A DNA stretch of 57,153 nucleotides from Gammaproteobacteria bacterium (GCA_048061315.1 JBGMRJ010000005.1:1-57153); one strand, 5' to 3'. Positions 26,093 to 43,104 are shown, counted from the first letter of the stretch. Program-made: numbers and translations. The notes: generated from the letters alone by a model not told the origin.

Positions 26093-26345
26093 CGTATCAA
26101 TTAGATAGCCGTATGCTGTATTATATTACTTTGTTTTTATAGGGTAATGATGTAGTTAACTGATTCTTTATAATTGCCGCTATTTCGGGCAGGGTTAATG
26201 ATTGATCAAAATGTGTCGATAAATTTCATATCATAATTCACTGAATGTTTATAATAATTGATTAAATCAGCTGCAGTCGCTTTAGATCATATTTTGAGTG
26301 GGTGAGCACAAATTCTGGTTTTTTGGGAATAACGAAATAGTTTTC

Positions 26346-27275
26346 ATGACAGCATATTTAAAATACATTAATGGCGACAATGAGAAGCAAATAGAGTGCA
26401 GTACTGTTTTAACAATTGGTAGAGATAAAAACAGTGATATTATACTTAAGGATTTAATGGTCTCCAGAAACCATGCAATGATTCGTTTAATTGGAGCCGG
26501 CGATTACTACCTGATTGATAGTGGTAGTTCAAATGGAAGTTACATCAATAAAAAACGTGTCGCGATGCCCACCCTGTTAAAGAATGGTGATCGCTTAACG
26601 ATCGGTCATATCATTTTTACCTTTGAAGACGAAGAGGATGAAACTAATAAAAAATCAGATTCTCTCTCGTTACAGGAAACTATCGTAGTTGATAGCCCGG
26701 AAATAAAACACAATACTATTTTAGTAGCGGATATTCGTGGTTTTACCTCCATATCGGAACAAGTTGATATTAAAACACTAACCCGGATGATGAATAAATG
26801 GTTTCATAATGTTAGTAATGCCATTTTTACAAATGGTGGAACGGTTGATAAATTTATTGGCGATTGTGTATTTGCACGCTGGGAATCTGAAACTGAAGAT
26901 AAACCTGCCATTATTCCTGCACTGCGTTCAGCATGGTTAATAAATATAATAACGAATAAATTAAACCAGTCATTTTCAGAAATTAATGAAAAAATTAGAA
27001 TAGGCGTTGGTATAAACAGCGGTATCGCTTCTGTTGGCATTGGACAGGATAATACTGCCTTAGGTGATGCCGTAAATGTTGCATTTCGGTTGGAAAATGC
27101 CAGTAAAATGCTCGATACTGATGTTGTTTTAAGTGAAACAGCCTATAAGTATCTCCCCGCTCTAAGCTGGAAGGGTAAAGAACAACATATTAGAGTTAAA
27201 GGTAAACGGGATACAATTCGTGTGTTAAGTCTAAAATTTAATGAAGTAGAAAGTTTATTGCAGGATGTAAACTGA
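26346..27275 (+). CDS. FHA domain fused to a class III adenylate/guanylate cyclase domain
   Basis: FHA: TIGRDKNSDIILKDLMVSRNHAMI...IDSGSSNGSYINKKRV...NGDRLTIG. Cyclase: ILVADIRGFTS, KFIGDCVFARW, GINSGIASVG, LGDAVNVAFRLE. I place the start at ATG 26346 rather than the upstream GTG 26298. Confidence 0.8.
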   Translation: MTAYLKYINGDNEKQIECSTVLTIGRDKNSDIILKDLMVSRNHAMIRLIGAGDYYLIDSGSSNGSYINKKRVAMPTLLKNGDRLTIGHIIFTFEDEEDETNKKSDSLSLQETIVVDSPEIKHNTILVADIRGFTSISEQVDIKTLTRMMNKWFHNVSNAIFTNGGTVDKFIGDCVFARWESETEDKPAIIPALRSAWLINIITNKLNQSFSEINEKIRIGVGINSGIASVGIGQDNTALGDAVNVAFRLENASKMLDTDVVLSETAYKYLPALSWKGKEQHIRVKGKRDTIRVLSLKFNEVESLLQDVN

Positions 27276-29047: not shown

Positions 29048-32000
29048 TTAGCGATCAGGTCCTAACTCAACACTGTCTTTCCATTTTTCCAGCATTGTCT
29101 TAAATTCTGAAGCTGCATTCTCTTTAACATTTAACTCAGCGCGGGATTGGGCTGCGGCAATTCGAGAAAGACGGCGTGTTTCTGTTTCTTCCACTACTAC
29201 TTCCTGATTTGGTTCTAGCCATGCAAGAACCTTGTCAAAATTAAAATACGTTTCGTTGGTAGCTGAAAATATGCCAATTATCGTAATTACAACGGTTGTA
29301 GTTGCAATTAATGTTAGCGTTTTATTTCGGGGCAGTTTTCGAGTAGCTACACGAGGTTGAGCTTGAAATGATTGAGAACTGGTAACATTATTAGTCTGTA
29401 GAAAACGATTTGAGGACAGTGCAACACTATCTGTGGGGTTAAAATTAGCCTGCTCATTAATTTGAGTATTACGAGCCTGTGTCAGAGGCGCAGGTGAAAC
29501 TACACTTGTTTCTTCTGTAAAAATTTGATCATTTGCATTATTAGCTTCTTCAAAATCAAATAAATCTTCGTCTATATCGATATCAATCGAGTTAGAAATT
29601 TCTAAATCAGGAACTCTATCCATTGTTTCAAGTACAGGAATGTCATCGAATTCATCTTCCTGTTCTTCAAAAACTATCTCTTCTGGATCCGGACGTTGAA
29701 ATATAAAAATATCATTTTCACCTTCCAGAATTATGCGACCATCTTTTTCGACAACTGTAGATTTTGCTAATGAGATATCGCTATTGAGATCCGATTGTAA
29801 TTCAACATCGAACTCTGGTTTTGCTTTTTTCTGTAATTTAGCCGCTATTGCAGTAGCTTTTTGTTTCGCTAATTCCTGATTTCTCTTGGCTTCAAGATTG
29901 GCCTGTTCTTGAGCTCTTAATTGAGCAAGTTGCCTCTCCTGTTCTTCTGCATGTTCCTGTTCTATTTGTTGTGTACGAAGTACAGCACGTTTCGCAGCTT
30001 CGTCTGCATTGCGCTTAGCTAATTGTTCGGTTTCTAAACGGGTTCGTTCAAAGGCTTCTGCTTCTGCTTTTGCCATTCGTGCTAATTCTGTTTCACGCGC
30101 GAGTTGTTTTGCTTCCTGGATTTCCAGTTCAATTTGCTTACGGGCATCAGCAACATCATTTTTGGCTTTTTGTGTGATCTTTTCTTGCTCTGAAAGTCTT
30201 TTTTCTTCTTCAGCCTGTTGACGGATTAGCCGAGCCTGTTCTGCTTCAGCCTGAGCTATTTTAGCCTGCTCTTGCAGTATTCTACGGGAAGCTTCAACTT
30301 CATTTTTTAGTTTATTGGCTTCAGATTTTGCTTCTTCACGAATTGATTCTGCTTCAGCTCTAAAATGTGCAGCCTCCATCTCAGCGCTCAAGCGGGCTTC
30401 TTCTGCTTCGATAGATAATTTATCGGCTAGTTCCTTGGTTTTTTTCTCTTGTTCTTCAAGCTTTCTGTTTTGAGTATCTTTTTCTTTTAGTTCGGACCGT
30501 AATTGAATAACGGCATTCTCCGCATCTTTTTGAGCTTTTGATGCAACATCGGTATTTTTTTGAAGTTGTAGTTCGGTTTCCTGTTTGTGTTTTTTGATAG
30601 CATTTTCGAGCTCAGTTTTTTCTTGCTCTACTTTTGATCGAATTGTATTTATTTCGTTATTTGCTTCTTGTTTTGCTTTTTCGAGTAATTTATCTGCTCT
30701 TGAAGATTTTTCTTCAGCTTCAAGTCTTTTATGTTCTAAAATTTGTTGTTCTTTTTTGCGTTGCTGTAATTCTGCCCGCAGTTCTTCTATTTCACGTTCT
30801 GTATCACTTTTGATATTCGAAATTTGTTGTTTCGCAATTTGTACTTCCGCTTCAGCTTTTTCCTGTTGTGCCAGAATTTTCTTTTCAACTTTTACACGTT
30901 TTGAGGCTTCTTTTTGGGATTTTTTAAGTTCACTTTCAACACGTTTGCGTTCTTTTTCAATTTCATTTTTATAGCGATTTAATTCCAGCTGCGAATGTTC
31001 TCGAATTGTTAGTGCTTCTTTTTTAATTCGTTCTATTTCCTGTTGCGCTTTTTTAGTTTCATCCGCAGCTTGTGCTGCTTTTCTATGCTCTTGTTTTAAT
31101 TTTTCTTGATAATTTTTTTCGGCCTGCAGTGCTTTTTTGCTCTCCTGGTTTGCTTGTGATGCTTTTATTCGTTCTTGTTCTAATTTCGCCTGGTAATCTT
31201 TTTCTATTTGTGTAGCCTTCTTAATGGATTCTTTTCGTTCTTTTTCAAGTTTTTCAGAAAATTCTTTCTCAGCTTTAGTTTTGATTAGATCAATTTCATC
31301 GTCATTCAACGTAGGGATTTGTAAACTCTCGAGTTCAGAAGCAATATTCGTTTTGGCAATTTTCACATCTGAAATAGAATTGTTTTTATTCGTATTTATC
31401 GCAACCGGGGTTACTATTGGTGAATGACTTTCAGTTTCTGCTGTTGCTGTTGCTTGCCTTGATGAGCGTTGCGCTTTTGGGAGCTCATTTTCTTTTGGCC
31501 GTAATAATTTATCGCAACTTGTCATACCTGATTGAATGACACTGCATTGCAAACCCAGCTGACACATTAAAAATGCAGCTGCTGCACTTCGATTTCCCGA
31601 ATCGCAATAGACCACATATTTTCGCGATGGATTTAAAGATGTAGCACGATTACGTAACATCGAAAGCGGGATATTCATCGCACCTTCTATGGCATCATTT
31701 TTAAACTCATCTTTGCTACGTACGTCGATTAATCTGGCACCGGATTTAACTAACTTACTTGCGGTTTCTTCATCGATATATTCGAGTAACGGTTGCACTA
31801 AAATGGTATTAAAATCTTCTTTGGTTAAGCGCATTAATGAACCATTTTCTTTCATGGTTACTGAGGCATTTCGTTTACCATTTGTTATTAAGGCTTCTTC
31901 ACCAAATCCATCACCAATGGTCAGGATTGCTAATTTAACGTCTTTAACTTTTGGAGCAGGGCGTCGAGATACATCACACTTTCCGGATTTAATAATGTAG

Positions 32001-32554
32001 TAGTAATCATCCTGAGTACCTTGTTTAACAACAACATCACCTTTTTTATAGTCAACCTCGGTCATTTTCATTAACAGATTTTGAATATTCTCTGTCGGTA
32101 GGTTTAAAAAGGCTTTAGATTGTAAAAAACGCAACATCCAGTCACTGGCATCATCATCTGATTCGTTGACATCAAGTTCGGTTACTTCATATGATGTAAC
32201 AATACTGTCATCGGCAGTGAGTATGTCCAATAAATCTGTATCGATCGATAATAAGGTTGCTGCAGTTTTTGTTCGAGCAGTAGAGGTTCTTGGTAAAGTT
32301 TGTTCAATTGCTGAAGTAGCAGCTGACGTTTTTGCTTTGAGAACCGTTGCGCGTGATTTTCCGGGCGTCGTTAATTCTATTTGTCCGGCTAATAAAAAAT
32401 AAGTACGTTTATCATGATCACCTTGTCTGAATAAAACCCGAGTCGCAGGCAGCTCTTCGATTTTCGCTTTATTAACGATCTCGTTAATTTTATCAGCACT
32501 TAAATCCTTAAAGGGATTTAAATTTTTTAAGATTTTTTTATCTACTTTTTTCAC
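29048..32554 (-). CDS. Giant tail-anchored protein: two cNMP-binding domains, a rhodanese domain, about 500 aa of coiled coil, an acidic region and a C-terminal TM
   Basis: The second CAP_ED domain has FGEEALITNGKRNASV. The rhodanese domain has the active-site loop YCDSGNRS. A long E/K/Q/A heptad-like stretch covers roughly residues 400-930. The hydrophobic LTLIATTTVVITIIGIFSA lies about 70 aa from the C-terminus. Confidence 0.8.
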   Translation of the reverse strand: MKKVDKKILKNLNPFKDLSADKINEIVNKAKIEELPATRVLFRQGDHDKRTYFLLAGQIELTTPGKSRATVLKAKTSAATSAIEQTLPRTSTARTKTAATLLSIDTDLLDILTADDSIVTSYEVTELDVNESDDDASDWMLRFLQSKAFLNLPTENIQNLLMKMTEVDYKKGDVVVKQGTQDDYYYIIKSGKCDVSRRPAPKVKDVKLAILTIGDGFGEEALITNGKRNASVTMKENGSLMRLTKEDFNTILVQPLLEYIDEETASKLVKSGARLIDVRSKDEFKNDAIEGAMNIPLSMLRNRATSLNPSRKYVVYCDSGNRSAAAAFLMCQLGLQCSVIQSGMTSCDKLLRPKENELPKAQRSSRQATATAETESHSPIVTPVAINTNKNNSISDVKIAKTNIASELESLQIPTLNDDEIDLIKTKAEKEFSEKLEKERKESIKKATQIEKDYQAKLEQERIKASQANQESKKALQAEKNYQEKLKQEHRKAAQAADETKKAQQEIERIKKEALTIREHSQLELNRYKNEIEKERKRVESELKKSQKEASKRVKVEKKILAQQEKAEAEVQIAKQQISNIKSDTEREIEELRAELQQRKKEQQILEHKRLEAEEKSSRADKLLEKAKQEANNEINTIRSKVEQEKTELENAIKKHKQETELQLQKNTDVASKAQKDAENAVIQLRSELKEKDTQNRKLEEQEKKTKELADKLSIEAEEARLSAEMEAAHFRAEAESIREEAKSEANKLKNEVEASRRILQEQAKIAQAEAEQARLIRQQAEEEKRLSEQEKITQKAKNDVADARKQIELEIQEAKQLARETELARMAKAEAEAFERTRLETEQLAKRNADEAAKRAVLRTQQIEQEHAEEQERQLAQLRAQEQANLEAKRNQELAKQKATAIAAKLQKKAKPEFDVELQSDLNSDISLAKSTVVEKDGRIILEGENDIFIFQRPDPEEIVFEEQEDEFDDIPVLETMDRVPDLEISNSIDIDIDEDLFDFEEANNANDQIFTEETSVVSPAPLTQARNTQINEQANFNPTDSVALSSNRFLQTNNVTSSQSFQAQPRVATRKLPRNKTLTLIATTTVVITIIGIFSATNETYFNFDKVLAWLEPNQEVVVEETETRRLSRIAAAQSRAELNVKENAASEFKTMLEKWKDSVELGPDR

Positions 32555-32924: not shown

Positions 32925-33623
32925 TTATTTATCATCATTGATTATAAATTTTAGCTCAAAAATAAATTGTTTGTTTCGCATATTTAATGTGAAGTGTTTC
33001 GCATTTTTTAATTGGCCTATTTTTGTAATGAAATTATTCGGGTCTTCTCTAATTAAACTATTATTGATTCCGGTAATAATATCACCTTCAGAGAGTCCTA
33101 ATAGCTCGGCTGGGCTATTCTCCTTAATTCGTGTAATTTGATAGCCACTAAAGTATCCGTCTTCTGTGAGCACTTTCATGCCAATATTATTAAGCCAGGT
33201 TTGAGTGTCATTATGAAGGCTGTTAAACGTTTTTCGGTTAATTCGATATTCGTAGCGTGTTATTTTTTCTGCATTGTTCAAATTAGAAATATTTCCATGG
33301 TATTTTCTATTCGTGGCAGGAACCAGACTAAGATGAGTAGATTTATTGGATTGAGTTAATGTGACAGAATCATTTGCGATAGCAGTTATTTTATAACCGA
33401 GTACAAACTGGTTTATTTGGTATATTTCCTCTGAATCATTTTTAATTCGCAATATTGCTAAAACATGTTTCCCTGTGATGGTGCCAACTAATTCAATTTG
33501 TGAGATTTCACCATCATCAGTAGGATTTGAATTGTCGGCATTCGTTATATTTATCAAGGCTAAATATAAATAAAATATAATAAGACAGTGGCACTTAGTC
33601 GAAACTTTATGCCCGCCGAACAT
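32925..33623 (-). CDS. PDZ-domain protein (GspC-like), last gene of the ExbB/ExbD/TonB-like operon
   Basis: N-terminal anchor. The C-terminal GYQITRIKENSPAELLGLSEGDIITGINN is a PDZ ligand-binding region. The start overlaps the upstream stop by 1 nt. Confidence 0.55.
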   Translation of the reverse strand: MFGGHKVSTKCHCLIIFYLYLALINITNADNSNPTDDGEISQIELVGTITGKHVLAILRIKNDSEEIYQINQFVLGYKITAIANDSVTLTQSNKSTHLSLVPATNRKYHGNISNLNNAEKITRYEYRINRKTFNSLHNDTQTWLNNIGMKVLTEDGYFSGYQITRIKENSPAELLGLSEGDIITGINNSLIREDPNNFITKIGQLKNAKHFTLNMRNKQFIFELKFIINDDK

Positions 33624-34546
33624 TATTGAGGCAACAATACCAGCGGAAAATTAAAAGTGAAATTGGATGCGCCGGGTTTTGCTCCAAAATTAAATCGTTT
33701 TACCCGCAATTTAATTCTTTTCTCGATACTCTTGTTCTTTAGCTCACTTGATACAATAGAAATTTTAATAACTTTACCTGACGCATTTAATGTGATTTTT
33801 AGTAGTATGGTACCTTGTAAGCCAGGATCCCGTCGTAAAGCCCGGTTGTATATTGAATTTATCGCACCTTTATTGCGTTGGAATATTAATTGAATTTCTT
33901 CATCGCTCCATCCTGTGGTGCGTGTCCGCTGCGAATTACTGTTCGATGTTGCGATAGAACTTTGAACATTAGTTGTTGAACGTGATTTTAATTTTGTATT
34001 GCTATTAATAACCGCTTTGCTACTTGCAATGCCACCACTACTGGAGTTGGCATTGGATTTTAATACACTTGAGGTATCAAATTTTACATTACGTTTTTTT
34101 GTAACTTTAAGTTTAGTGTTTTTCAATGCCGCCACATTGAAACCATCTCGCAAATCAGCAAGTTCATCAAATCCCGCTGAATCAAAAGCGGACTGAGCAA
34201 CTTTCTTCGCAGATGGTTTTGGTTTAGGTTTAGGTTTTTTCTTTTTTACAGCTTTCTTTTTAGGTTTTTTCTTGGGCTTTTTCTTTACGACCTTCTTTTT
34301 TTTATCAATCTTTTTTGGTTGTGGTTTTTTAATGATTGGTTTAATTGGTTGCTTTATTAATAAACGCGCAAATCTGGGTGGGATTTCATCAAACTTGTCT
34401 TTTTTTACTTCAGGTGTCGGTAATAAAGGTATAACAACAAATAGTATGACAAAAATTATAAATACTTTTTTTGCAACTTTATTAAAACGCTGATCATTGT
34501 CGGTATCCGACCAGGGCAATAAGGGCTCGGCAGTATATTGATACAT
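33623..34546 (-). CDS. TonB-like energy-transducer protein (GltG/AgmX-like)
   Basis: N-terminal TM, a Lys/Pro-rich spacer (KKPKKKPKKK...KPKPKPKP), and a C-terminal domain of about 90 aa with a TonB_C-like pattern (YNRALRRDPGLQGTILLKITLNASGKV). Confidence 0.6.
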   Translation of the reverse strand: MYQYTAEPLLPWSDTDNDQRFNKVAKKVFIIFVILFVVIPLLPTPEVKKDKFDEIPPRFARLLIKQPIKPIIKKPQPKKIDKKKKVVKKKPKKKPKKKAVKKKKPKPKPKPSAKKVAQSAFDSAGFDELADLRDGFNVAALKNTKLKVTKKRNVKFDTSSVLKSNANSSSGGIASSKAVINSNTKLKSRSTTNVQSSIATSNSNSQRTRTTGWSDEEIQLIFQRNKGAINSIYNRALRRDPGLQGTILLKITLNASGKVIKISIVSSELKNKSIEKRIKLRVKRFNFGAKPGASNFTFNFPLVLLPQ

Positions 34547-35055
34547 TAACTTTTCTCCCCTTCGACCGATTTTTGTAAAACAGCGAGAGATATGTTTGTA
34601 TAATTTGCATTAGAGCAGGTTACCATTATTTTTTTCAGTAGCTTGAATGGAATTTTTTTATCACCCAATATAGTAACTTTTAAACCTTTTTTATTTTTTG
34701 CCAGACGCATTGCTCTTGCAGCATATCGCCTTAACTGTTTCTGTAAACCAGGAATTATGGGTGATTTTTGGCGTAGGATATCTTTTACTAATGCAACAGA
34801 GCGACCTTGCAGTAAAATGTGTTTATCGTTAACAGTAATTACAATAGATTTTTTTGGCGTCTGTTGTGCTGTCGATTCTGGAAGTTGAATAGCTTTACTA
34901 TTTGTTAGTGCTTCTTCTTCACCTGAACTGACCAATAAAAAGAATACTAATATCGTGAAGATATCCATTAAGGAAACCATATTTAAACTGGCTGTACGAT
35001 CTTTACGACGCTTATGATGAGCCTGCATGCGTTTAGCACGTGCGGACATTTTCAT
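34546..35055 (-). CDS. ExbD/TolR-family biopolymer transport protein
   Basis: Basic N-terminus, a single TM (LNMVSLMDIFTILVFFLLV) and a periplasmic domain. Overlaps its neighbours by 1 nt. Confidence 0.8.
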   Translation of the reverse strand: MKMSARAKRMQAHHKRRKDRTASLNMVSLMDIFTILVFFLLVSSGEEEALTNSKAIQLPESTAQQTPKKSIVITVNDKHILLQGRSVALVKDILRQKSPIIPGLQKQLRRYAARAMRLAKNKKGLKVTILGDKKIPFKLLKKIMVTCSNANYTNISLAVLQKSVEGEKS

Positions 35056-35096
35056 AGTAATACTCTCATTTTTTCTTAATCAACTTTAAATTTTAA

Positions 35097-35597
35097 TTAT
35101 CGTTTGACCGGTGCATCACCAATCGCAATTTCAGGAAATAATTCAGCATAAACAAACTCATTATCTAATTTTGCTTTATAAGTTCTGACTGAATCCATTA
35201 CTCGAACCAGTGTTTCGTAGGATGTATTGGGTGATGACAATATTGTAGTATTCGTTTTATCTGGATATTTTGCTTTTATTTGCTTTAGGAGATCGGTTAA
35301 TGCTTTGGTATTATGTTTACCTTTGTAAAGTGGAATCGATCTTAGTAGGCCACCTTTGTTATCAACAACTGCGATATTATTTTTGTACACAACCACTTGA
35401 AATTCAAATTTCTGCTTTTGTTTGGATGCTACAGATTTTCCTGCTGCCGGTAAATTTAGTTCCAATATAGCCATTCGTGAAAATACCGCCGTGATAAGCA
35501 GAAATGGGACTAAAACCACCATTAAATTCATAAAGGCAGTAATGTTTAATTCTGCAGTATCGATATTACGTTTACGTCGTTTACGTACACGGCTCAT
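35097..35597 (-). CDS. ExbD/TolR-family biopolymer transport protein
   Basis: Basic N-terminus and a single TM (LNITAFMNLMVVLVPFLLI), with ExbD-like periplasmic domain topology. Confidence 0.8.
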   Translation of the reverse strand: MSRVRKRRKRNIDTAELNITAFMNLMVVLVPFLLITAVFSRMAILELNLPAAGKSVASKQKQKFEFQVVVYKNNIAVVDNKGGLLRSIPLYKGKHNTKALTDLLKQIKAKYPDKTNTTILSSPNTSYETLVRVMDSVRTYKAKLDNEFVYAELFPEIAIGDAPVKR

Positions 35598-35599
35598 CT

Positions 35600-36247
35600 T
35601 TATTTACCACCAAAGCTGGTTTTTTCAGAAATGGAATTAACAAATTTAACGCCGGCCATTTCAAGGCTATCGACTATTTCAGTGGTTTTAGTTTGTAATA
35701 CGGTGTAAATCAACAGTAGTGGGATTGCTACCATTAATCCAAATGCCGTAGTGTTCATTGCAACTGAAATACTCTCGGATAAGATTTGTGCTTTTTGAGA
35801 TGGGTCTGCTTCAGCAACAGCTTTAAAGGCGTTAATCAAACCAATAATGGTTCCCAATAATCCTAACAAAGTTGCTATGTTTGCGAAGGTGGCCAGATAG
35901 TGTGTGCGTTTTTCCAAACGAGGGATTATTTCCATCATGCCTTCTTCAATTGACATTTCGACATCATCACGGTGTTTTGCTGATTTTACTTTAGATAATC
36001 CATTGCTGATAACGCGACTCATTGCATTATTGGATTTTGAAGTGAGACCGTATGCTTTTTGAAAATCACCTTGTTTTAAGATAGGCAATAACTCGGCTAA
36101 GAGTTTACGGTTAGTACGGCGTGATGCAGAGAGGTATACGTATCTCTCTATTGCAATTGCTGCACCTAGTGCCAGTACAATTGCAATCGGGTACATAAAA
36201 ATACCACCATTTTTAAAAAAATCGACAATAGTTGTGTAAATGTCCAT
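35600..36247 (-). CDS. MotA/TolQ/ExbB proton-channel family protein
   Basis: Three TMs with the conserved C-terminal pair (ATLLGLLGTIIGLINAF ... MNTTAFGLMVAIPLL). Confidence 0.9.
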   Translation of the reverse strand: MDIYTTIVDFFKNGGIFMYPIAIVLALGAAIAIERYVYLSASRRTNRKLLAELLPILKQGDFQKAYGLTSKSNNAMSRVISNGLSKVKSAKHRDDVEMSIEEGMMEIIPRLEKRTHYLATFANIATLLGLLGTIIGLINAFKAVAEADPSQKAQILSESISVAMNTTAFGLMVAIPLLLIYTVLQTKTTEIVDSLEMAGVKFVNSISEKTSFGGK

Positions 36248-36304
36248 ACCTATCTCCTGGAGCGTATGTTAGTGATTATATTTTGTTTGATTATGATTAG
36301 TTAC

Positions 36305-36604
36305 TTAATTTTCATTTTTTTCAGGGTTAAGCTGTTCATGAAAATTGACTTGTCTTTGAAATTCTTTTCGTTCAATTGGTGCAAGAGCCTCATCCACGAG
36401 TCTATCGATTGGTAATGAATCCATATCGGGTAGTTGAGATTGTTTCCAGGGCACAATATACAAAACTTTCGGCAACTCTCGATTCCCAATAATGGATGTC
36501 CCTTCTATGTCTACAACTTCCTCAGCAAAGCCTGCTTGTGCAAAATAACTGCTTAATAGGCCATTCACAAAGAGTGACAATAATAGTAAATTAATATATT
36601 TCAT
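36305..36604 (-). CDS. Small secreted protein (occupies the GltF-equivalent position)
   Basis: 99 aa with signal peptide MKYINLLLLSLFVNGLLSSYFAQA. No domain recognised. Confidence 0.5.
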   Translation of the reverse strand: MKYINLLLLSLFVNGLLSSYFAQAGFAEEVVDIEGTSIIGNRELPKVLYIVPWKQSQLPDMDSLPIDRLVDEALAPIERKEFQRQVNFHEQLNPEKNEN

Positions 36605-36635
36605 GATTTAAACCTTTTGTATATTGTATAGTAAG

Positions 36636-37265
36636 TTATGATGCATTTACACGTCGTTCAATATCAATAATCCATTTACTGACATTTTTATCTTTGTTTC
36701 CTGTTATTTCCTGGTACCGCTTGTAGTGTTCCAGAGCTTTGCTTAAATTCGCCAGATATATGTCGTATAAGATACCAATATTTAAATGTGCATTGGCATA
36801 TTTTGGCTTACTGCGAATTGCAAGTTGGTAAGACTTTAAAGCATCCTTGAATTTACCGTTTTTACGCTGAATAACGCCAATATGATTATGGCTAACAGCG
36901 TTATTGGGGTTCAAATTCAAAGCCTTATCAAATGCTTTTTGTGCTTTTGAATACTGTTTGGCATGAAAATAGATTAACCCAAGGTTTACGTGTGGACCGG
37001 CAAATTGTGGATAATTTTGAGTTAATAATTTTAATGCTCTGATTGCAGAGTTGTTTTTATTAGACTGCATTAAGGAAATTGCACGAATGTAGTCACGTTT
37101 AAATTTAGGTGTAACAGGCGGCGTTTGAATTTTAACAAATGCCGGTAATGAATCTTCAGTTGGCTGAGTTCCCGAGTTTTCAGTTTGAGCTGCGCACGCT
37201 GTAAGACTGACAATAAATATTGAAAGAATTAAATTTTTAAAATTAATGTTATTAATGAACTGCAT
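36636..37265 (-). CDS. TPR-repeat lipoprotein (GltE/AglT-like)
   Basis: Lipobox SLTAC. At least four TPR units (AIRALKLL..., AQKAFDKALNLNPNNAVSHNHIGV..., ALKSYQLAIRSKPKYANAHLNIG...). Confidence 0.75.
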   Translation of the reverse strand: MQFINNINFKNLILSIFIVSLTACAAQTENSGTQPTEDSLPAFVKIQTPPVTPKFKRDYIRAISLMQSNKNNSAIRALKLLTQNYPQFAGPHVNLGLIYFHAKQYSKAQKAFDKALNLNPNNAVSHNHIGVIQRKNGKFKDALKSYQLAIRSKPKYANAHLNIGILYDIYLANLSKALEHYKRYQEITGNKDKNVSKWIIDIERRVNAS

Positions 37266-40164
37266 TTGTGTATTGCTCTATGTGTTCTGGTTTTGCATAA
37301 CGGGCAGGTAGTAATTTACTTAATTGCTTTAAACTACTTTTGACCCATTTATTGTAAATCCCGTCTTGTATTCGTGCTAAATTGCTTGTATGTATTTCTA
37401 TCGATTTTTCTTCTAGTGGAAAAGCTTGTTCTTCTAAAAGAAGTTCATATTCTTCGAGCTGGTCGGCAGTTAGTTTTTTGGGTCGTTCCGACTTCATTAG
37501 GGATACTGCAAAATCCCGATAGATTTCTGCAATGCGATAGGTAGCTGATGTTGTAACAGAAGCTACTTGATAATCTATTGCTACAGTGTAGGCTGCTATC
37601 GCTTTTTGCATTAATTTTTTCTTTTTTCTCAAGCTCTTTTTTAAAGGGATTGTTAACTTTACTTTATTATAGGCGACATGTTTAGGCTCAGCCATGGTTA
37701 GTAAAGCTTCTGCGACAATAATCTTAGTTTCTTCAGTTCTGGAATTCGGGTATTTTTTATCAGTTTTAATTATATCTTTCAACCAATACCATTGTTGTTT
37801 ATGATTTTTTTTCTTTTTGTAAATTGTGACTAGCTCAGATCGTGCTTCCATTGATTCGGGCATTCTACCCGGGAATAATTTGATGTAATTTGTATATGCT
37901 TTAATGGCACGATCAGTTTTATTGGCATTTTTATAGATTAAAGCGACTTGCCATAATAATCGTTGTGATACAGCTTTATCTTTAGTATTGAGTGCAAGTA
38001 CTTCAAGCTGACCTGCAGCCTTTACATGCTGACCTGATTTTGTGTAAACCAGAGCTAGTTTTTCTGTTACTCCCGACTGTAACTTATGCCTTCTAGGCTG
38101 TGTTTTACGAAACCGTTCAAGTATGCTTCCGGCCTTTTTCCATAGGCCGAGTGTTATATACTCGGCTGCTGCATCATATTCAGCGGTTGCTACGATTGAC
38201 GAATTAGGAACGGATTTTCGAACACGTAAAAATTGTACTGCTGCTTTTTCATGGTTACCCGCCAGTCGTAATTGTTCACCTTGTTTATATATACTTGCTG
38301 CAAGTCGTTTAATAATCGCTGGTCTTTGTTTGTCTTTTTTATCGTAATATTTAATACTCTTTCGATAGGCTAGTTCTGCTTTTTTATAATTCCCTAATTC
38401 AAACTTGGCATGAGCGAGAATAGTCCAGGCAGACTTCAAATCTTTTTGCGATTTTTTTCCGGGTTTTTTCAATAGTTGTTCAGCAGTACTTGCGGCACGT
38501 GTGTAATCTTTAAGTGTAAATAGTTTCTCTGATGTTTTAACTAAAACCGTAGACACATTTTTATTATTAGGAAATTTTACTGTAAATTTTAATGCACTTT
38601 CTATGCTCTTTAGCTGCCAAACAGCAACTTGATCTTTTGGTAAGGATGGAATTAGTTTTTGGTAAGCCAATATCGCAGCATATGCAGCGGTACTACTTTT
38701 TCGATGAGGCTTATAATCATAAGCAGTTTTTTCATATTCAATAATTGCTTTGTTATACTGTTTACTGTCAAAAAGAATTTCAGCTAACAAAAAATTCTTT
38801 TGTGATGTTTGTTTATCGTTGGGAAATGATTCAATAAATACCTGATACCAATGTGCGGCTTTATTAAAGTCAGATAATTTACGTTTTTTCTTGGCCACTG
38901 AGTGGTAGTGTCGGGATAGATCCGATATGTGTTTTTTTAGTTGAGGCTTTAAGGTGTTTCGGGTTTCAGGAGAGTGCGAGTTCCAAAAAGCTGAATTAAC
39001 ACCATAATTTTCAACAAACGTTTCTTTTGTTGGTAATATTAAAGAAGCAAAACCACCACTTTTATAAGCGAGGATTGCAAGGTTATGAAATTTAGGTGCT
39101 TGATCGTGTTGTGGATGATGAGTGATAAATTCAAGATATGTATTCGCAGCATCAATAATGCGATCTTTTTCAGTGTAAAGATCACCTAAACTTTTATAAA
39201 TTTGTGGTTCATATTCTCTTGAGCCATTTTCTTTAAAATAACGTGAAACACTTTTTGGGCCATCAAGGTAAGTGAACGTTAAACTAATTGCCCGCATAGT
39301 ATCTTTGATTAATTCCTGTTCACTTCGGGATAAAACAACAGTTTCTTTACCAATTAAATTACCGGATTGTCTAATTAATTTATTGACGTTTGCAGGTCTT
39401 ACACCGGGTATTTCACTATTATTTTTGTGAAGTAATTTTTGATCCAGTAATTTAAAAAATGCAGTTAAAGTTTTGGTATGTTTATTTTGTTTGAATAAGC
39501 TCCAACTGTATTTATAAAGTGAGCGTTGGTAATAGATAGAATCGATATTTGTATCAACTATTATTTTGTAGGCTTGTTCTGCACCTTTATAATCACCTAA
39601 AACAAACATGGTCTCACCACGACGAAAATTAATTTCTTGTCGGCGTGGATCATTTGGAAACTTTTCATTTAAAACATTCAGAATTTTGAGGGCGTTTTCA
39701 AGTTCCCCCAGAATTTCGTAGGCTTTTGAGAGTTGGTAGTAAATTTCATTATTCGAGGGTTTATCAGGGTATTTTTTTAAATACGTTTTATATTGTCGTA
39801 TTGCACTAACCAGATCAACCTTACTTTGAGATTGAAGGCGTTTACTCCTGCTCGTACTTTTCTTTACGCCAGCTTCGAGTTTTAAATCTGCCAGTCTACG
39901 TAAAGAATCCTGATAAATTTTTTCATTGGAGCCGGTTTTTCCTGCTACAACATTTTCATAAGTGTTAATTACTTTTTTTCGATCCATCTTTCTTTTCGAT
40001 GGATCTATTTCGGCAAAACTGACTTCTTTATCTTCCAGGCTGTCTAATGTTGCGGCTTGTTTACTCGCGCCACATGACACTAATGTTAAAGAAAATAGCA
40101 GAAGGATAAACGGGAATACTTTATTCAGTGAGGTACTGAAATAATTCAAGTGACAAAAATTCAT
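37252..40164 (-). CDS. Large (970 aa) TPR-rich lipoprotein (GltD/AgmU-like)
   Basis: Lipobox LVSC. TPR-like helical repeats run along the whole length. It overlaps the downstream TPR gene by 14 nt. Confidence 0.7.
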   Translation of the reverse strand: MNFCHLNYFSTSLNKVFPFILLLFSLTLVSCGASKQAATLDSLEDKEVSFAEIDPSKRKMDRKKVINTYENVVAGKTGSNEKIYQDSLRRLADLKLEAGVKKSTSRSKRLQSQSKVDLVSAIRQYKTYLKKYPDKPSNNEIYYQLSKAYEILGELENALKILNVLNEKFPNDPRRQEINFRRGETMFVLGDYKGAEQAYKIIVDTNIDSIYYQRSLYKYSWSLFKQNKHTKTLTAFFKLLDQKLLHKNNSEIPGVRPANVNKLIRQSGNLIGKETVVLSRSEQELIKDTMRAISLTFTYLDGPKSVSRYFKENGSREYEPQIYKSLGDLYTEKDRIIDAANTYLEFITHHPQHDQAPKFHNLAILAYKSGGFASLILPTKETFVENYGVNSAFWNSHSPETRNTLKPQLKKHISDLSRHYHSVAKKKRKLSDFNKAAHWYQVFIESFPNDKQTSQKNFLLAEILFDSKQYNKAIIEYEKTAYDYKPHRKSSTAAYAAILAYQKLIPSLPKDQVAVWQLKSIESALKFTVKFPNNKNVSTVLVKTSEKLFTLKDYTRAASTAEQLLKKPGKKSQKDLKSAWTILAHAKFELGNYKKAELAYRKSIKYYDKKDKQRPAIIKRLAASIYKQGEQLRLAGNHEKAAVQFLRVRKSVPNSSIVATAEYDAAAEYITLGLWKKAGSILERFRKTQPRRHKLQSGVTEKLALVYTKSGQHVKAAGQLEVLALNTKDKAVSQRLLWQVALIYKNANKTDRAIKAYTNYIKLFPGRMPESMEARSELVTIYKKKKNHKQQWYWLKDIIKTDKKYPNSRTEETKIIVAEALLTMAEPKHVAYNKVKLTIPLKKSLRKKKKLMQKAIAAYTVAIDYQVASVTTSATYRIAEIYRDFAVSLMKSERPKKLTADQLEEYELLLEEQAFPLEEKSIEIHTSNLARIQDGIYNKWVKSSLKQLSKLLPARYAKPEHIEQYTNAVH

Positions 40165-40176
40165 AATGTTACGGAG

Positions 40177-40674
40177 TTATTCCCAAATTTTAATGTTGAG
40201 CACAGGCAGATCTTGTTGCTCAGATTTGGATATCTCAAGCTCAACAAACTTTGTGGTATCAGTTTTTGTTAATTTTGAAGAGCTACTAATTTCATAGCTT
40301 TGTTTGTTACCACCAATTGCAGAGAATTCAGCTTTAATGGTATGTTCTCCTTCACTCAAATTTCCAACATATATTTTTTGCGTTGCATTTTTTAAAAGTG
40401 CCTTACTCTCACGTTGAGAATAAATGTATGTTTTTGTTTTTCTATTATCGAGATAAAGATTTACAAAATTTAATTTAAAACCTGAAGGTGCCGTGACGGT
40501 TAGTAATACTGCCAGTTGAGACTTTTCCGGTTTAAAAAGAATCTCCTGCAGCTCAGATAGTTCCTTATTGACATCAGACCAGGCATTATTATCGATTGTT
40601 ATTAGGCTAACTATAAAAGCAGCAGCCACAAAAATTAAAAACTGTAAAATAGATTTTAATTTGAAAATTCTCAT
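40177..40674 (-). CDS. Secreted protein of unknown function, first gene of the operon
   Basis: The internal ATG at 40674 gives MRIFKLKSILQFLIFVAAAFIVSLI..., a signal peptide. The 40-aa extension in the ORF track lacks coding character. Confidence 0.5.
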   Translation of the reverse strand: MRIFKLKSILQFLIFVAAAFIVSLITIDNNAWSDVNKELSELQEILFKPEKSQLAVLLTVTAPSGFKLNFVNLYLDNRKTKTYIYSQRESKALLKNATQKIYVGNLSEGEHTIKAEFSAIGGNKQSYEISSSSKLTKTDTTKFVELEISKSEQQDLPVLNIKIWE

Positions 40675-41130
40675 ATCTAAATATATTACCTTTATTTTTT
40701 GTTGTTCGACAGGAAATACTATACTAATTTTGTGTCTATTAATTATAACTGCATCAAGAATACTATAACGGCAATTTTGTCTTAATATTTTCAATATTTT
40801 AAATAGGACAATAATTAGGTTTATCCCTGTAAATCACTATGATTTTGACCTGATATGTCTCTATTTTAACCAGCTTGACTGAAAAATTGCAGGAAAATTG
40901 AATATCAAATATCAGATAGTATCGTTAAAAGCCATTAATTCTAATATGTTAAATAATAGACGATAATTCGATTTCGTATTTGATTCTCATCACAAAATCA
41001 ATTTATCAGCAAATAATCAACAACTTAGTAATACCATTTCAATTTTTCTGAATTTATGTTGTTAACATAAGTTATCAGGTAACAAAATACATCGAAGCAT
41101 TATATTATAGTGATTCCAGACCTGCATGAC

Positions 41131-42150
41131 CTATTTACTCTTTTGGGTTTTTAAACCGTCAGAAAAGTGTAATTTACCTTCTGCGTCAATAATGATGGCA
41201 TCAAAATCAGCTATGGTATTAATCAAGTTGAGTGCTTTACGGGTACCCAGTACAAACAGACTTGTTGATAATGCATCACATGTGGTGGAGTCTGGCCCAA
41301 TTACAGACACACTTTGAACTGATGATATTGAATAGCCTGTTTTGGGACTAATTATATGGTGATAACGAACACCATCTTCGATAAAAAACCGTTCATAATC
41401 CCCTGATGTTGAAATCGCAATATTGCTTAGGGGAATAAGTATCGCTGATTTTCCAGGAATTCTGGGATTGCGGATTCCGGTAATCCAGGGGCGGCCTCGA
41501 TGATCGCCAATAATTCGAGTATCGCCACCGGCGCTGACTAATCCGTGTTTTACACCATTATCTTTTAGAATATCAATGCTCTTATCAACCGCATGACCTT
41601 TCGCTATGCCACCTAAATCAATGACGACACCGGCTTGTGAAAATTTGATACTTTGATCAGGCCTAAATAATTGTAAATGCTTATAGTTTATTTTATTCAG
41701 ATTATTGTTAATTTGATTCTTGGCTGGTTTTATTTTTAAGCGATAATCATATAAATTACCAATGCTTGCAAAGGTGATATCAAATGCGCCTTGTGTTAAT
41801 TCTGATATTTCGATTGATTTTTGAATCAAGTTAAACATTTCGTTACTGATAGTGACTTTTTGTGATGCTGCTAGACGATTAACTCTGGATATTTCGCTTT
41901 CTTTTTTGAATGGGCTCATTAATTCATCAATTCGGCGCATTTCTGTAATAACTTTTTTCAGTAATAATTTTCCTTTATTTTTGTTTTCTTCATCGAGCCA
42001 AAATTCAATTCGAATTTCGGTACCCATGATTGATTGTTTATCTTTGAACCACTGGGCAAATGTATTGCCGGAAAAAAAATAGCATATTGATAAAAATATG
42101 AATTGTAATACGACTTTTTGTAAAAAGGTGTGAACAATTTGAAATGGCAT
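41131..42150 (-). CDS. apbE: FAD:protein FMN transferase (flavin transferase)
   Basis: GAFDIT, DLGGIAKG, SAGGD, STSGDYERFF and DALSTSLFVLG motifs of the ApbE family. N-terminal signal present. Confidence 0.85.
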   Translation of the reverse strand: MPFQIVHTFLQKVVLQFIFLSICYFFSGNTFAQWFKDKQSIMGTEIRIEFWLDEENKNKGKLLLKKVITEMRRIDELMSPFKKESEISRVNRLAASQKVTISNEMFNLIQKSIEISELTQGAFDITFASIGNLYDYRLKIKPAKNQINNNLNKINYKHLQLFRPDQSIKFSQAGVVIDLGGIAKGHAVDKSIDILKDNGVKHGLVSAGGDTRIIGDHRGRPWITGIRNPRIPGKSAILIPLSNIAISTSGDYERFFIEDGVRYHHIISPKTGYSISSVQSVSVIGPDSTTCDALSTSLFVLGTRKALNLINTIADFDAIIIDAEGKLHFSDGLKTQKSK

Positions 42151-42333: not shown

Positions 42334-43104
42334 ATGACAAATAGTAATACCCCGCCAAATTCATTGGAATCCATTCTTAGTGCCTTACGAGATGATTATC
42401 TGGCCGACCTGCCAACTCGACTTCAGGATATGGAAGCACAGGTTTTAGCATTGGAAAATAAGAACCAATTTGAAGAGCAGTATCAGGCTTTATTCCGTAA
42501 CGTTCACAGTATTAAAGGTAGCGCCGGGACTCATGGTTTATTTATACTCTCGAGAATCTGTCACCGTTTTGAAGATCATTTATCCTCAAATAAACAGTTT
42601 AATGTTTTGGAGAATCATCAGGTTTCACATTTATTCAAATTTGTTGATTTATTAGTATCAGCAAGAGATCGAATTATTAGTGGCGATGATGTTTTTACCG
42701 CAATTGAACATGATCTTGACGAGCTGGATATAAAGGCATTCAAAGGCGTTATTAAAATATTGATTGTCGGTCAGTCAACCTCAACTATAAGTTTAATAAC
42801 AAAGCTGTTAAAAAATTATCCTGTTCAGATTAGTACTTTATCCGATGGCTTACAATCCCTGGATAAATTAGTACATGATAAATTTGATTTAATGTTTGTG
42901 GGGCTTGAGTTACCGATGTTAAATGGTTTGGCGCTTATAGCTGCAATCAGGCTGTCTAAAACTCTAAATTCAACAATGCCGATTATATTATTAACATCAA
43001 AGGCCGAGATTAAGACTGATCCATTACTATCTGTTAACCATGTAATTCAGCGTGACTCTAATATGATATCAAATATAGAAAAAGCATTTAAAACAATTTT
43101 ATAA
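42334..43104 (+). CDS. Hpt domain fused to a receiver-like domain lacking the acceptor Asp
   Basis: The Hpt motif is HSIKGSAGTHG. In the C-terminal CheY-like fold the acceptor position reads DLMFVGLELPMLNG (Gly in place of Asp), and ILIVGQS replaces DD. Confidence 0.6.
   Translation: MTNSNTPPNSLESILSALRDDYLADLPTRLQDMEAQVLALENKNQFEEQYQALFRNVHSIKGSAGTHGLFILSRICHRFEDHLSSNKQFNVLENHQVSHLFKFVDLLVSARDRIISGDDVFTAIEHDLDELDIKAFKGVIKILIVGQSTSTISLITKLLKNYPVQISTLSDGLQSLDKLVHDKFDLMFVGLELPMLNGLALIAAIRLSKTLNSTMPIILLTSKAEIKTDPLLSVNHVIQRDSNMISNIEKAFKTIL

Follow-up and report, generated by a model that had tools for sequence, protein, structure and literature searches.

Organization of the operon

The DNA considered here, referred to as the window, is a 57,153-nucleotide (nt) stretch from an uncultured gammaproteobacterium (GCA_048061315.1 JBGMRJ010000005.1:1-57153). 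Between positions 32925 and 40674 its minus strand carries nine open reading frames (ORFs), named g1 to g9 in coding order. Their products comprise a TolQ/ExbB-like and two TolR/ExbD-like inner-membrane proteins, a TonB/TolA-type transducer, two lipoproteins built of TPR units, two small exported proteins and a GspC-like protein (Table 1). Within the Glt-type core complex family the operon is probably a reduced form, without the GltC component and with a GspC-like protein in addition. A sequence-only reading of the same DNA had described nine packed minus-strand genes with 1-nt and 14-nt overlaps, and ORF translation of the window reproduced every coordinate: g2 and g3 overlap by 14 nt, g7/g8 and g8/g9 by 1 nt each, and the remaining gaps range from 2 to 57 nt, with 12 nt between g1 and g2. 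The ATG start assigned to g1 is backed by the N-termini of its homologues. The nine-gene operon is confirmed as a real arrangement and not a chance one; its order recurs in related genomes.

For comparison, 80 related loci from GTDB genomes were annotated by ORF calling and BLAST synteny. These loci belong to Thioalkalispiraceae, Acidiferrobacterales, Steroidobacteraceae, Woeseiaceae, Candidatus Thiodiazotropha and Burkholderiales (among them Rhizobacter and Aquabacterium), and they are phylogenetically related. The order that recurs across them is g1, a GltC-like gene, g2, g3, g4, g5, g6, g7 and g8. Close relatives of the window, loci L081 and L082 from hydrothermal or marine metagenomes, share 74-77% identity in g2 and have an ApbE gene upstream. 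The full nine-gene order is present in L082; in L081 it can be followed into the ninth gene, which is truncated by the end of the contig.

Table 1. Features of the operon and its surroundings, with the sizes of published proteobacterial counterparts (Table S3 of Luciano et al. 2011, PMC3169522); aa, amino acids
Feature	Position	Strand	Length	Description	Published counterpart
FHA + adenylate/guanylate cyclase fusion	26298-27275	plus		two genes beyond the cNMP-binding protein
cNMP-binding protein	29048-32554	minus	1168 aa	two cNMP-binding domains and a rhodanese domain (Pfam)
g9	32925-33623	minus	232 aa	GspC-like, HR and PDZ domains
g8	33623-34546	minus	307 aa	GltG-like TonB/TolA-type transducer	GltG-like, 321-371 aa (535 in Thioalkalivibrio)
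g7	34546-35055	minus	169 aa	TolR/ExbD-like, AglS position	AglS-like, 162-185 aa
g6	35097-35597	minus	166 aa	TolR/ExbD-like, AglQ position	AglQ-like, 168-188 aa
g5	35600-36247	minus	215 aa	TolQ/ExbB/AglR-like	AglR-like, 217-272 aa
g4	36305-36604	minus	99 aa	secreted	skipped locus tag, no size
g3	36636-37265	minus	209 aa	TPR lipoprotein	GltE-like, 162-263 aa
g2	37252-40164	minus	970 aa	TPR lipoprotein	GltD-like, 922-1016 aa
GltC-like gene			absent		GltC-like, 550-692 aa
g1	40177-40674	minus	165 aa	exported; length counted from ATG
Leader	40675-41130	minus	456 nt	AT-rich, between g1 and the ApbE gene
Proximal leader block	40723-40672	minus		TATAGT and ribosome-binding site
Distal leader block	41028-40947	minus		TGTGA-N6-TCAAA (40994-40979) and TATTAT hexamer
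ApbE-family flavin transferase	41131-42150	minus		Pfam ApbE, 5.3e-82; upstream of the leader
Hpt + response-regulator receiver protein	42334-43104	plus		divergent, just upstream of ApbE

Presumed stator proteins

The motor-type genes g5, g6 and g7 are contiguous, one TolQ/ExbB-like gene being followed by two TolR/ExbD-like genes, and Pfam assigns them to MotA_ExbB (g5, 1.3e-30) and ExbD (g6, 5.3e-16; g7, 1.1e-16). The NCBIfam equivalog models are approached from a distance: the best match of g5 is TolQ (66.9 bits, cut-off 221), ahead of ExbB (51.7 bits, cut-off 206.2), the ExbD models give at most 28.3 bits against cut-offs of at least 123, and TolR gives about 31 bits against 127. Among sequences in the PDB, the closest match of g5 is ExbB (1.1e-10) and TolQ follows (2.6e-7). 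All three proteins align to solved ExbB, TolQ, ExbD and TolR chains over the functional transmembrane segments, and the motifs of the second and third transmembrane segments of g5 are conserved across 66 sequences. By analogy with these structures, g5 is presumed to be the subunit of a pentameric stator ring.

The two TolR/ExbD-like paralogues differ at the position of the protonatable aspartate. Asn24 of g6 aligns to Asp25 of Escherichia coli ExbD, and the transmembrane Asp31 of g7 aligns to Asp23 of TolR. The first paralogue carries asparagine in most of the related loci and aspartate only in those of the Steroidobacteraceae type, where both paralogues have it; in the second paralogue, the displayed part of a 64-sequence alignment shows aspartate without exception. 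A published AlphaFold model of Agl-Glt places an AglR5 ring around an AglQ/AglS heterodimer. Because of this arrangement, together with the asymmetry between aspartate and asparagine, a 5:2 stator carrying a single protonatable aspartate is inferred for the branch to which the window belongs, and a stator with one proton-carrying aspartate would be frequent in the family at large. A role in anti-phage defence was considered and rejected, since defence models matched nothing more than generic domains: for Zorya (ZorA/ZorB), the only match was a generic 19-bit one of the MotA/ExbB region to ZorA, and the other genes gave nothing.

The transducer and the TonB alternative

The transducer g8 starts with about 25 cytoplasmic residues, which are followed by one transmembrane segment, a spacer rich in Lys and Pro, a linker rich in Ser and Asn, and finally a C-terminal domain; the conservation profile reveals an LPW motif in the short cytoplasmic N-terminus. 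The C-terminus passes the NCBIfam model NF033768, which describes the AgmX/PglI C-terminal domain, with 66.9 bits against a cut-off of 40. The match to the GltG equivalog (52.5 bits, cut-off 650) is limited to this same C-terminus, as would be expected of the short proteobacterial form of the protein. The sequence-only reading had spoken of a TonB_C-type protein with a Lys/Pro spacer. The spacer and the TonB-like layout are indeed present, but the TonB C-terminal models are not satisfied: TIGR01352 (tonB_Cterm) stays at 25.5 bits against 27.1, Pfam finds no domain in g8, TonB_C included, and no PDB sequence matches below an E-value of 0.7. There is no FHA domain in the cytoplasmic part of g8 and, because that part spans only some 25 residues, no coupling to a cytoplasmic platform.

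These data bear on the alternative that the operon encodes a specialised TonB-ExbB-ExbD energiser with TPR accessories, resembling Vibrio TonB2/TonB3, which would power TonB-dependent transporters encoded elsewhere. Such systems (TonB2/TonB3 and TtpC/TtpD of Vibrio included) share with the window an ExbB-like and an ExbD-like protein, a Pro/Lys-rich single-pass transducer and a TPR protein. The alternative would account for the ExbB identity of the closest PDB match of g5, for the TonB layout of g8 (transmembrane segment, Pro/Lys spacer, C-terminal domain) with its narrow miss of the tonB_Cterm cut-off, and for the source name of one close g2 homologue, "TPR domain protein, putative component of TonB system". 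However, the AgmX/PglI domain fits the C-terminus of g8 better than any TonB model, every ExbB and ExbD equivalog score is far under its cut-off, and the window differs from TonB systems in having two ExbD paralogues and a giant TPR lipoprotein and in lacking a TtpC-like long MotA/ExbB protein. The earlier statement that neither a TonB-dependent receptor nor a convincing Fur box accompanies the cluster holds: the only ORFs of the 57-kb window longer than 520 aa encode a methyl-accepting chemotaxis protein, PepN, g2 and the cNMP-binding protein (cNMP, cyclic nucleoside monophosphate), and the best Fur-box match in the leader, 14/19 positions, is not significant, being equalled by 62 of 500 dinucleotide shuffles (12%). 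Receptor families are likewise missing from the subset scanned with Pfam of the 30 gene clusters most shared among the 80 loci. A TonB energiser of this specialised kind is consequently considered highly unlikely, and the operon is not a siderophore-type TonB system.

TPR lipoproteins

Pfam and NCBIfam scans place TPR domains in both g2 and g3, and their translations contain lipoboxes (LVSC in g2, LTAC in g3); the consensus of 28 g2 homologues keeps "AC" at the lipobox site. The repeated TPR units of g2 resemble those of YbgF/CpoB (85.5 bits on TIGR02795, cut-off 90.1) and BamD (76.5 bits). A protein search returned more than 900 homologues of g2 with 37-47% identity across Gammaproteobacteria, and tblastn found no plasmid copy. 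Both the size and the position of g2 agree with the GltD homologues listed by Luciano et al., and g2 is presumed to be the central periplasmic scaffold, anchored in the outer membrane. The smaller protein g3 is conserved in 48 of the 80 loci. In position, size, TPR content and lipoboxes, g2 and g3 together fit the GltD and GltE slots.

Small exported proteins

Neither g1 nor g4 matches a Pfam or NCBIfam family. The g1 product is exported and consists of an N-terminal signal or anchor helix, one more helix and an eight-stranded beta-sandwich at residues 53-164, as seen in an AlphaFold2 model with a predicted local distance difference test score (pLDDT) of 78.8. A Foldseek search with this fold gave only generic Ig/transthyretin-like matches, none at E<=1e-3. 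Homologues of g1 lie upstream of GltC- or GltD-like genes in 51 of the 80 loci, and g1 is the conserved first gene of the cluster family; in the family it stands 5' of GltC, and the tables of Luciano et al. 2011 do not list it. A natural in-frame fusion of 713 aa in locus L011 (7845-9986) combines a GltC-like TPR protein with a beta-sandwich domain of the g1 type (residues 47-173). Because the two are fused in one protein there, g1 and the GltC-like protein are suggested to act together. A paralogous relationship between g1 and a GltC domain was also considered and rejected, hhalign giving it a probability of 5%.

The secreted protein g4 is defined by a near-invariant, strand-like motif, ELPKVLYIVPWK, in the family alignment. 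A search of 1.84 billion representatives (proteins clustered at 50% identity) yielded 1228 family members at E<=1e-3 and 357 at E<=1e-10, many with N-terminal extensions that bring the total to as much as about 260 aa; among the related loci, g4 is conserved in 46. The gene directly follows the GltE-like gene, where gltF sits, and is of similar size; it had been read as the core protein GltF. That identification has to be withdrawn: Luciano et al. assign GltF to a group restricted to Myxococcales and Bdellovibrionales, and regard the small gene found where g4 lies as an extra one for which Myxococcales have no homologue. In their published clusters the slot between the GltE-like and AglR-like genes is a skipped locus tag. 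In the published proteobacterial core, g4 corresponds to this "additional gene", and its likeness to GltF is limited to position and size.

The GspC-like protein and the secretin alternative

The last gene, g9, had been described simply as a PDZ protein. The PDZ domain is there (Pfam PDZ_6 and PDZ), but the description was incomplete, as a GspC-type HR domain lies between it and the N-terminal anchor. NCBIfam matches g9 to GspC_delta (1.4e-15; 57.9 bits, cut-off 150) and to TIGR01713 (1.2e-10; 41.5 bits, cut-off 101.6). In Foldseek, the AlphaFold2 model of g9 (pLDDT 75.9) matches the PDZ domains of EpsC (2i4s, E 5.6e-5) and PulC, and it superposes on the GspC HR domain from the GspC-GspD complex (3oss_C) with a target-normalised template modelling score of 0.80 and a root-mean-square deviation of 1.6 A. 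The anchor-HR-PDZ layout is thus shared with GspC (EpsC/PulC), and judged by its modelled fold g9 is GspC-like. It differs from GspC in scoring below the family cut-offs and in being encoded outside a gsp operon, within a motor/TPR operon.

If g9 were to link the motor, by way of the N0 domain, with a secretin encoded elsewhere that belongs to type II secretion or a type IV pilus, the operon would be a secretin-linked device, and both the structural matches and the GspC model hits would find a ready explanation. However, no other gsp or pil genes occur among the window neighbours tested, and the profile search of the g9 family found the gene in only one of the 80 loci, L003, besides L082 and L081 (where it is cut by the contig end). 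Given this distribution g9 is best regarded as a lineage-specific addition, and a device built around it would not explain the family as a whole. This alternative is extremely unlikely.

Relationship to the Agl-Glt core

The conserved core of the Agl-Glt system, as defined by Luciano et al. 2011 (PMC3169522), comprises aglR, aglQ, aglS, gltD, gltE, gltG and gltC. It forms a single cluster of unknown function in several non-gliding gammaproteobacteria, one betaproteobacterium, Geobacter and Fibrobacter, with Mpe_A1224-1231, CJA_3312-3319, Maqu_1595-1602 and Tgr7_0536-0543 as published examples, and the published trees describe how the proteobacterial core branches with AglRQS and GltDEG of M. 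xanthus. The sequence-only reading, which had mentioned such single clusters in non-gliding proteobacteria with no established role, is in agreement with that paper. The window resembles the published core in forming one co-oriented cluster and in the order and near-identical sizes of the GltD-, GltE-, small additional, AglR-, two TolR- and GltG-like products; sizes and order agree except for GltC, the AglR-, AglQ- and GltG-like proteins being 2-14 aa below the published ranges. In contrast to the core, the window has no GltC-like gene and adds the GspC-like gene at its 3' end. When the nine genes were equated with the core set, it was missed that the core's GltC is lacking and that g1 and the PDZ gene lie outside the published core, and GltF was wrongly counted as a core member. 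The proposed membership of the Agl-Glt core family is supported by gene order, sizes and the NF033768 match of g8.

Several observations weigh against assigning the operon to this family. With NCBIfam searched at E<=10, no GltD, GltC, GltF or AglRQS model matched any of the cluster proteins. The score of g3 on the GltE equivalog NF033758 (41.9 bits, cut-off 225) is on a par with its scores on the Tgl and PilW models and does not rise above those of other TPR models. GltC counts among the seven genes of the published core and has been proposed as the connector to the outer membrane; as it is missing here, the link to that membrane rests only on the predicted lipidation of the TPR proteins. Finally, the view is that of a 57-kb window of the genome, and partner genes could be encoded elsewhere.

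The absence of GltC is not peculiar to the window. A tblastn search of the window with GltC-like proteins from related loci gave nothing; GltC-like genes are present in 61 of the 80 related loci, and L002, L081 and L082 also lack one. These gene contents suggest that the Glt-type family can do without GltC. On balance, the reduced Glt-type core remains the probable identity of the operon, and the best explanation of the family is that it is an ancestral, non-motile relative of the Agl-Glt and Nfs machines of Myxococcus.

The M. xanthus Agl-Glt and Agl-Nfs machines share with the window a TolQ-like protein with two different TolR-like proteins, a transducer with an AgmX/PglI-type C-terminus, one large and one small TPR lipoprotein, and a small secreted protein whose gene comes just behind that of the small TPR protein. 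It may be asked whether the operon encodes a comparable surface-transport machine, by which an adhesin or a polymer would travel along the outer membrane or across it, as in gliding (Agl-Glt) or in the handling of spore-coat polysaccharide (Agl-Nfs). Common evolutionary descent points in this direction, as do the many related loci in which GltC-like and outer membrane protein beta-barrel genes lie within the same co-oriented block. The window differs from these machines, however, in that its genes form one operon and not three loci, its transducer has neither an FHA domain nor a platform-coupling cytoplasmic part, GltC and GltF are missing, and no equivalents of GltA/B/H/K, GltI/J, CglB, AglZ or MglA, nor an outer-membrane barrel gene, were identified among the window genes examined. 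Luciano et al. (PMC3169522) argue, moreover, that the core alone does not drive motility. There is no reason to expect motility from the window, and a surface-transport role is highly improbable. With no FHA domain on g8, no GltC and, among the window genes examined, no barrel or adhesin modules of the outer membrane, the operon is not a gliding motor.

Proposed mechanism

For the reduced Glt-type core, a mechanism can be proposed in which stoichiometry and protein contacts are inferred from the TolQR and ExbBD structures and from the published AlphaFold model of Agl-Glt, in which GltD forms a pillar bound by the linker and C-terminal domain of GltG and by GltE. The g5 protein would form a TolQ/ExbB-like ring in the inner membrane around a TolR/ExbD-like heterodimer of g6 and g7, of which only g7 would provide a protonatable transmembrane aspartate. 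This 5:2 stator, driven by proton flow, would act on the single-pass, TonB/TolA-like g8, whose Lys/Pro-rich linker would span the periplasm. The AgmX/PglI-type C-terminal domain of g8, with part of the linker, would bind the TPR lipoprotein g2, and both g2 and the small TPR lipoprotein g3 would be anchored in the outer membrane. The secreted proteins g1 and g4 and the GspC-like g9 would serve as accessory periplasmic adaptors. Energy from the inner membrane would in this way reach a scaffold tethered to the outer membrane, in the fashion of Tol-Pal.

By this analogy, the output is probably a Tol-Pal-like task of maintenance or assembly in the outer membrane or periplasm. With Tol-Pal the operon shares a TolQR-type stator driven by the proton motive force, an extended inner-membrane transducer that would reach an outer-membrane lipoprotein (as judged from the genes), and the CpoB/YbgF-like TPR units of g2. 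It differs in having neither TolB nor Pal, in its two distinct TolR paralogues of which one lacks the aspartate, in equivalog scores that are all below the cut-offs, and in the size and predicted lipidation of its 970-aa TPR protein.

Significance

The cluster is a variant of a family described in 2011, a solid result that is largely expected and will not surprise a specialist. The role of the Agl-Glt core in bacteria that do not glide would reveal the origin of the gliding and spore-coat machines. The literature searched contained no functional study of the proteobacterial core, and recent reviews are silent on non-gliders. The comparative observations are the most useful product of the analysis: g1 and g4 are conserved components left without a detailed description by Luciano et al. 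2011, and the family to which they belong is very large, as illustrated by the size of the g4 family. An uncultured source is a poor experimental entry point, but cultured carriers exist in Marinobacter, Cellvibrio, Shewanella frigidimarina and Thioalkalivibrio.

Leader of the operon

An AT-rich leader of 456 nt had been reported upstream of the operon, and the gap between g1 and the ApbE gene is present as claimed. Alignment with the leaders of L081 and L082 shows two conserved blocks, the remainder having diverged. In the distal block, the TATTAT hexamer lies about 28 nt from the centre of the TGTGA-N6-TCAAA element, which corresponds to class II CRP-like geometry; the block may, speculatively, be a CRP-like site in a class II promoter arrangement. 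No Rfam family matched in the window, and promoter- and terminator-like sites were not enriched in the leader, the region tested.

Genomic neighbourhood

Beyond the leader lies the gene of an ApbE-family flavin transferase. An ApbE gene is found in 36 of the 80 loci, and across orders its placement with respect to the cluster takes at least three forms: upstream on the same strand (often right before g1), directly after g8, as in the Thiodiazotropha loci, or, in one locus, on the opposite strand. In the 41 informative loci, the same-strand gene immediately before g1 encodes a TlpA-like redoxin, a DUF3570 protein or ApbE in 28, and at least one of ApbE, TlpA-like redoxin, DUF3570 and DUF4266 occurs in 35. 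The family is thus repeatedly encoded beside genes of periplasmic redox maturation. The combination of ApbE and DUF3570 with thioredoxin-like and DUF4266 proteins is established as a flavinylation cluster (Meheust et al. 2021), and that study does not mention ExbB or TPR neighbours. DUF4266 was also seen in some loci directly upstream of g1 on the same strand.

A functional link between ApbE and the cluster is possible in view of this gene context. In its stronger form, the operon would energise or assemble a redox module outside the cytoplasm: its motor and TPR scaffold would place, insert or gate redox proteins of the periplasm or outer membrane that work with flavin, haem or thiol groups (ApbE, DUF3570, DUF4266, TlpA-like redoxin, multihaem lipoprotein). 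The recurrence of the redox genes in the window, in its close relatives and across the informative loci would follow naturally from such a role. Against it, ApbE could simply serve Nqr or Rnf, and the window retains ApbE alone, set off by a leader with its own conserved promoter-like blocks. Because no cluster protein has a conserved [S/T]GA[S/T] flavinylation motif and the loci are not independent samples, the redox link is a lead and not a finding, and a redox-dedicated device is regarded as unlikely. As a separate observation, some loci add an HZS_alpha/multihaem lipoprotein with outer membrane protein beta-barrels, or a trio of PSD2-like, Laminin_G_3 and Tat-signal proteins.

On the other side of the operon, the gene of the cNMP-binding protein follows g9 in the same orientation after a gap of 370 nt. 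Its translation includes a long coiled-coil-like stretch and a C-terminal transmembrane segment, and a protein of about 1200 aa with the same two Pfam domains adjoins the cluster in L082, L002 and L003, within this branch only. Its position suggests that it may be a regulatory or structural partner of the motor in the branch of the window. The nearby FHA-cyclase fusion gene, taken together with the CRP-like leader site, hints at cyclic-nucleotide control of the region.

The two neighbourhoods can be combined into a broader proposal, in which the Glt-type core, instead of being a generic envelope device, is a motor powered by protons and reserved for a redox apparatus outside the cytoplasm and, in the branch of the window, is further wired to cyclic-nucleotide signalling; taken as a whole, this proposal is decidedly unlikely. 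Together with g1 and g4, the TPR scaffold would serve as a dock or gate for electron-transfer proteins of the outer membrane and periplasm, candidates being a flavinylated DUF3570 barrel, a DUF4266 CxC lipoprotein, the TlpA-like redoxin and HZS-alpha/multihaem lipoproteins. ApbE would be retained beside the operon for the sake of these proteins, and the cyclic-nucleotide wiring would run through the downstream cNMP-binding coiled-coil membrane protein and the CRP-like leader site. At the far end of the region, just beyond ApbE, the divergent Hpt/receiver gene occupies the same place in L081 and L002.

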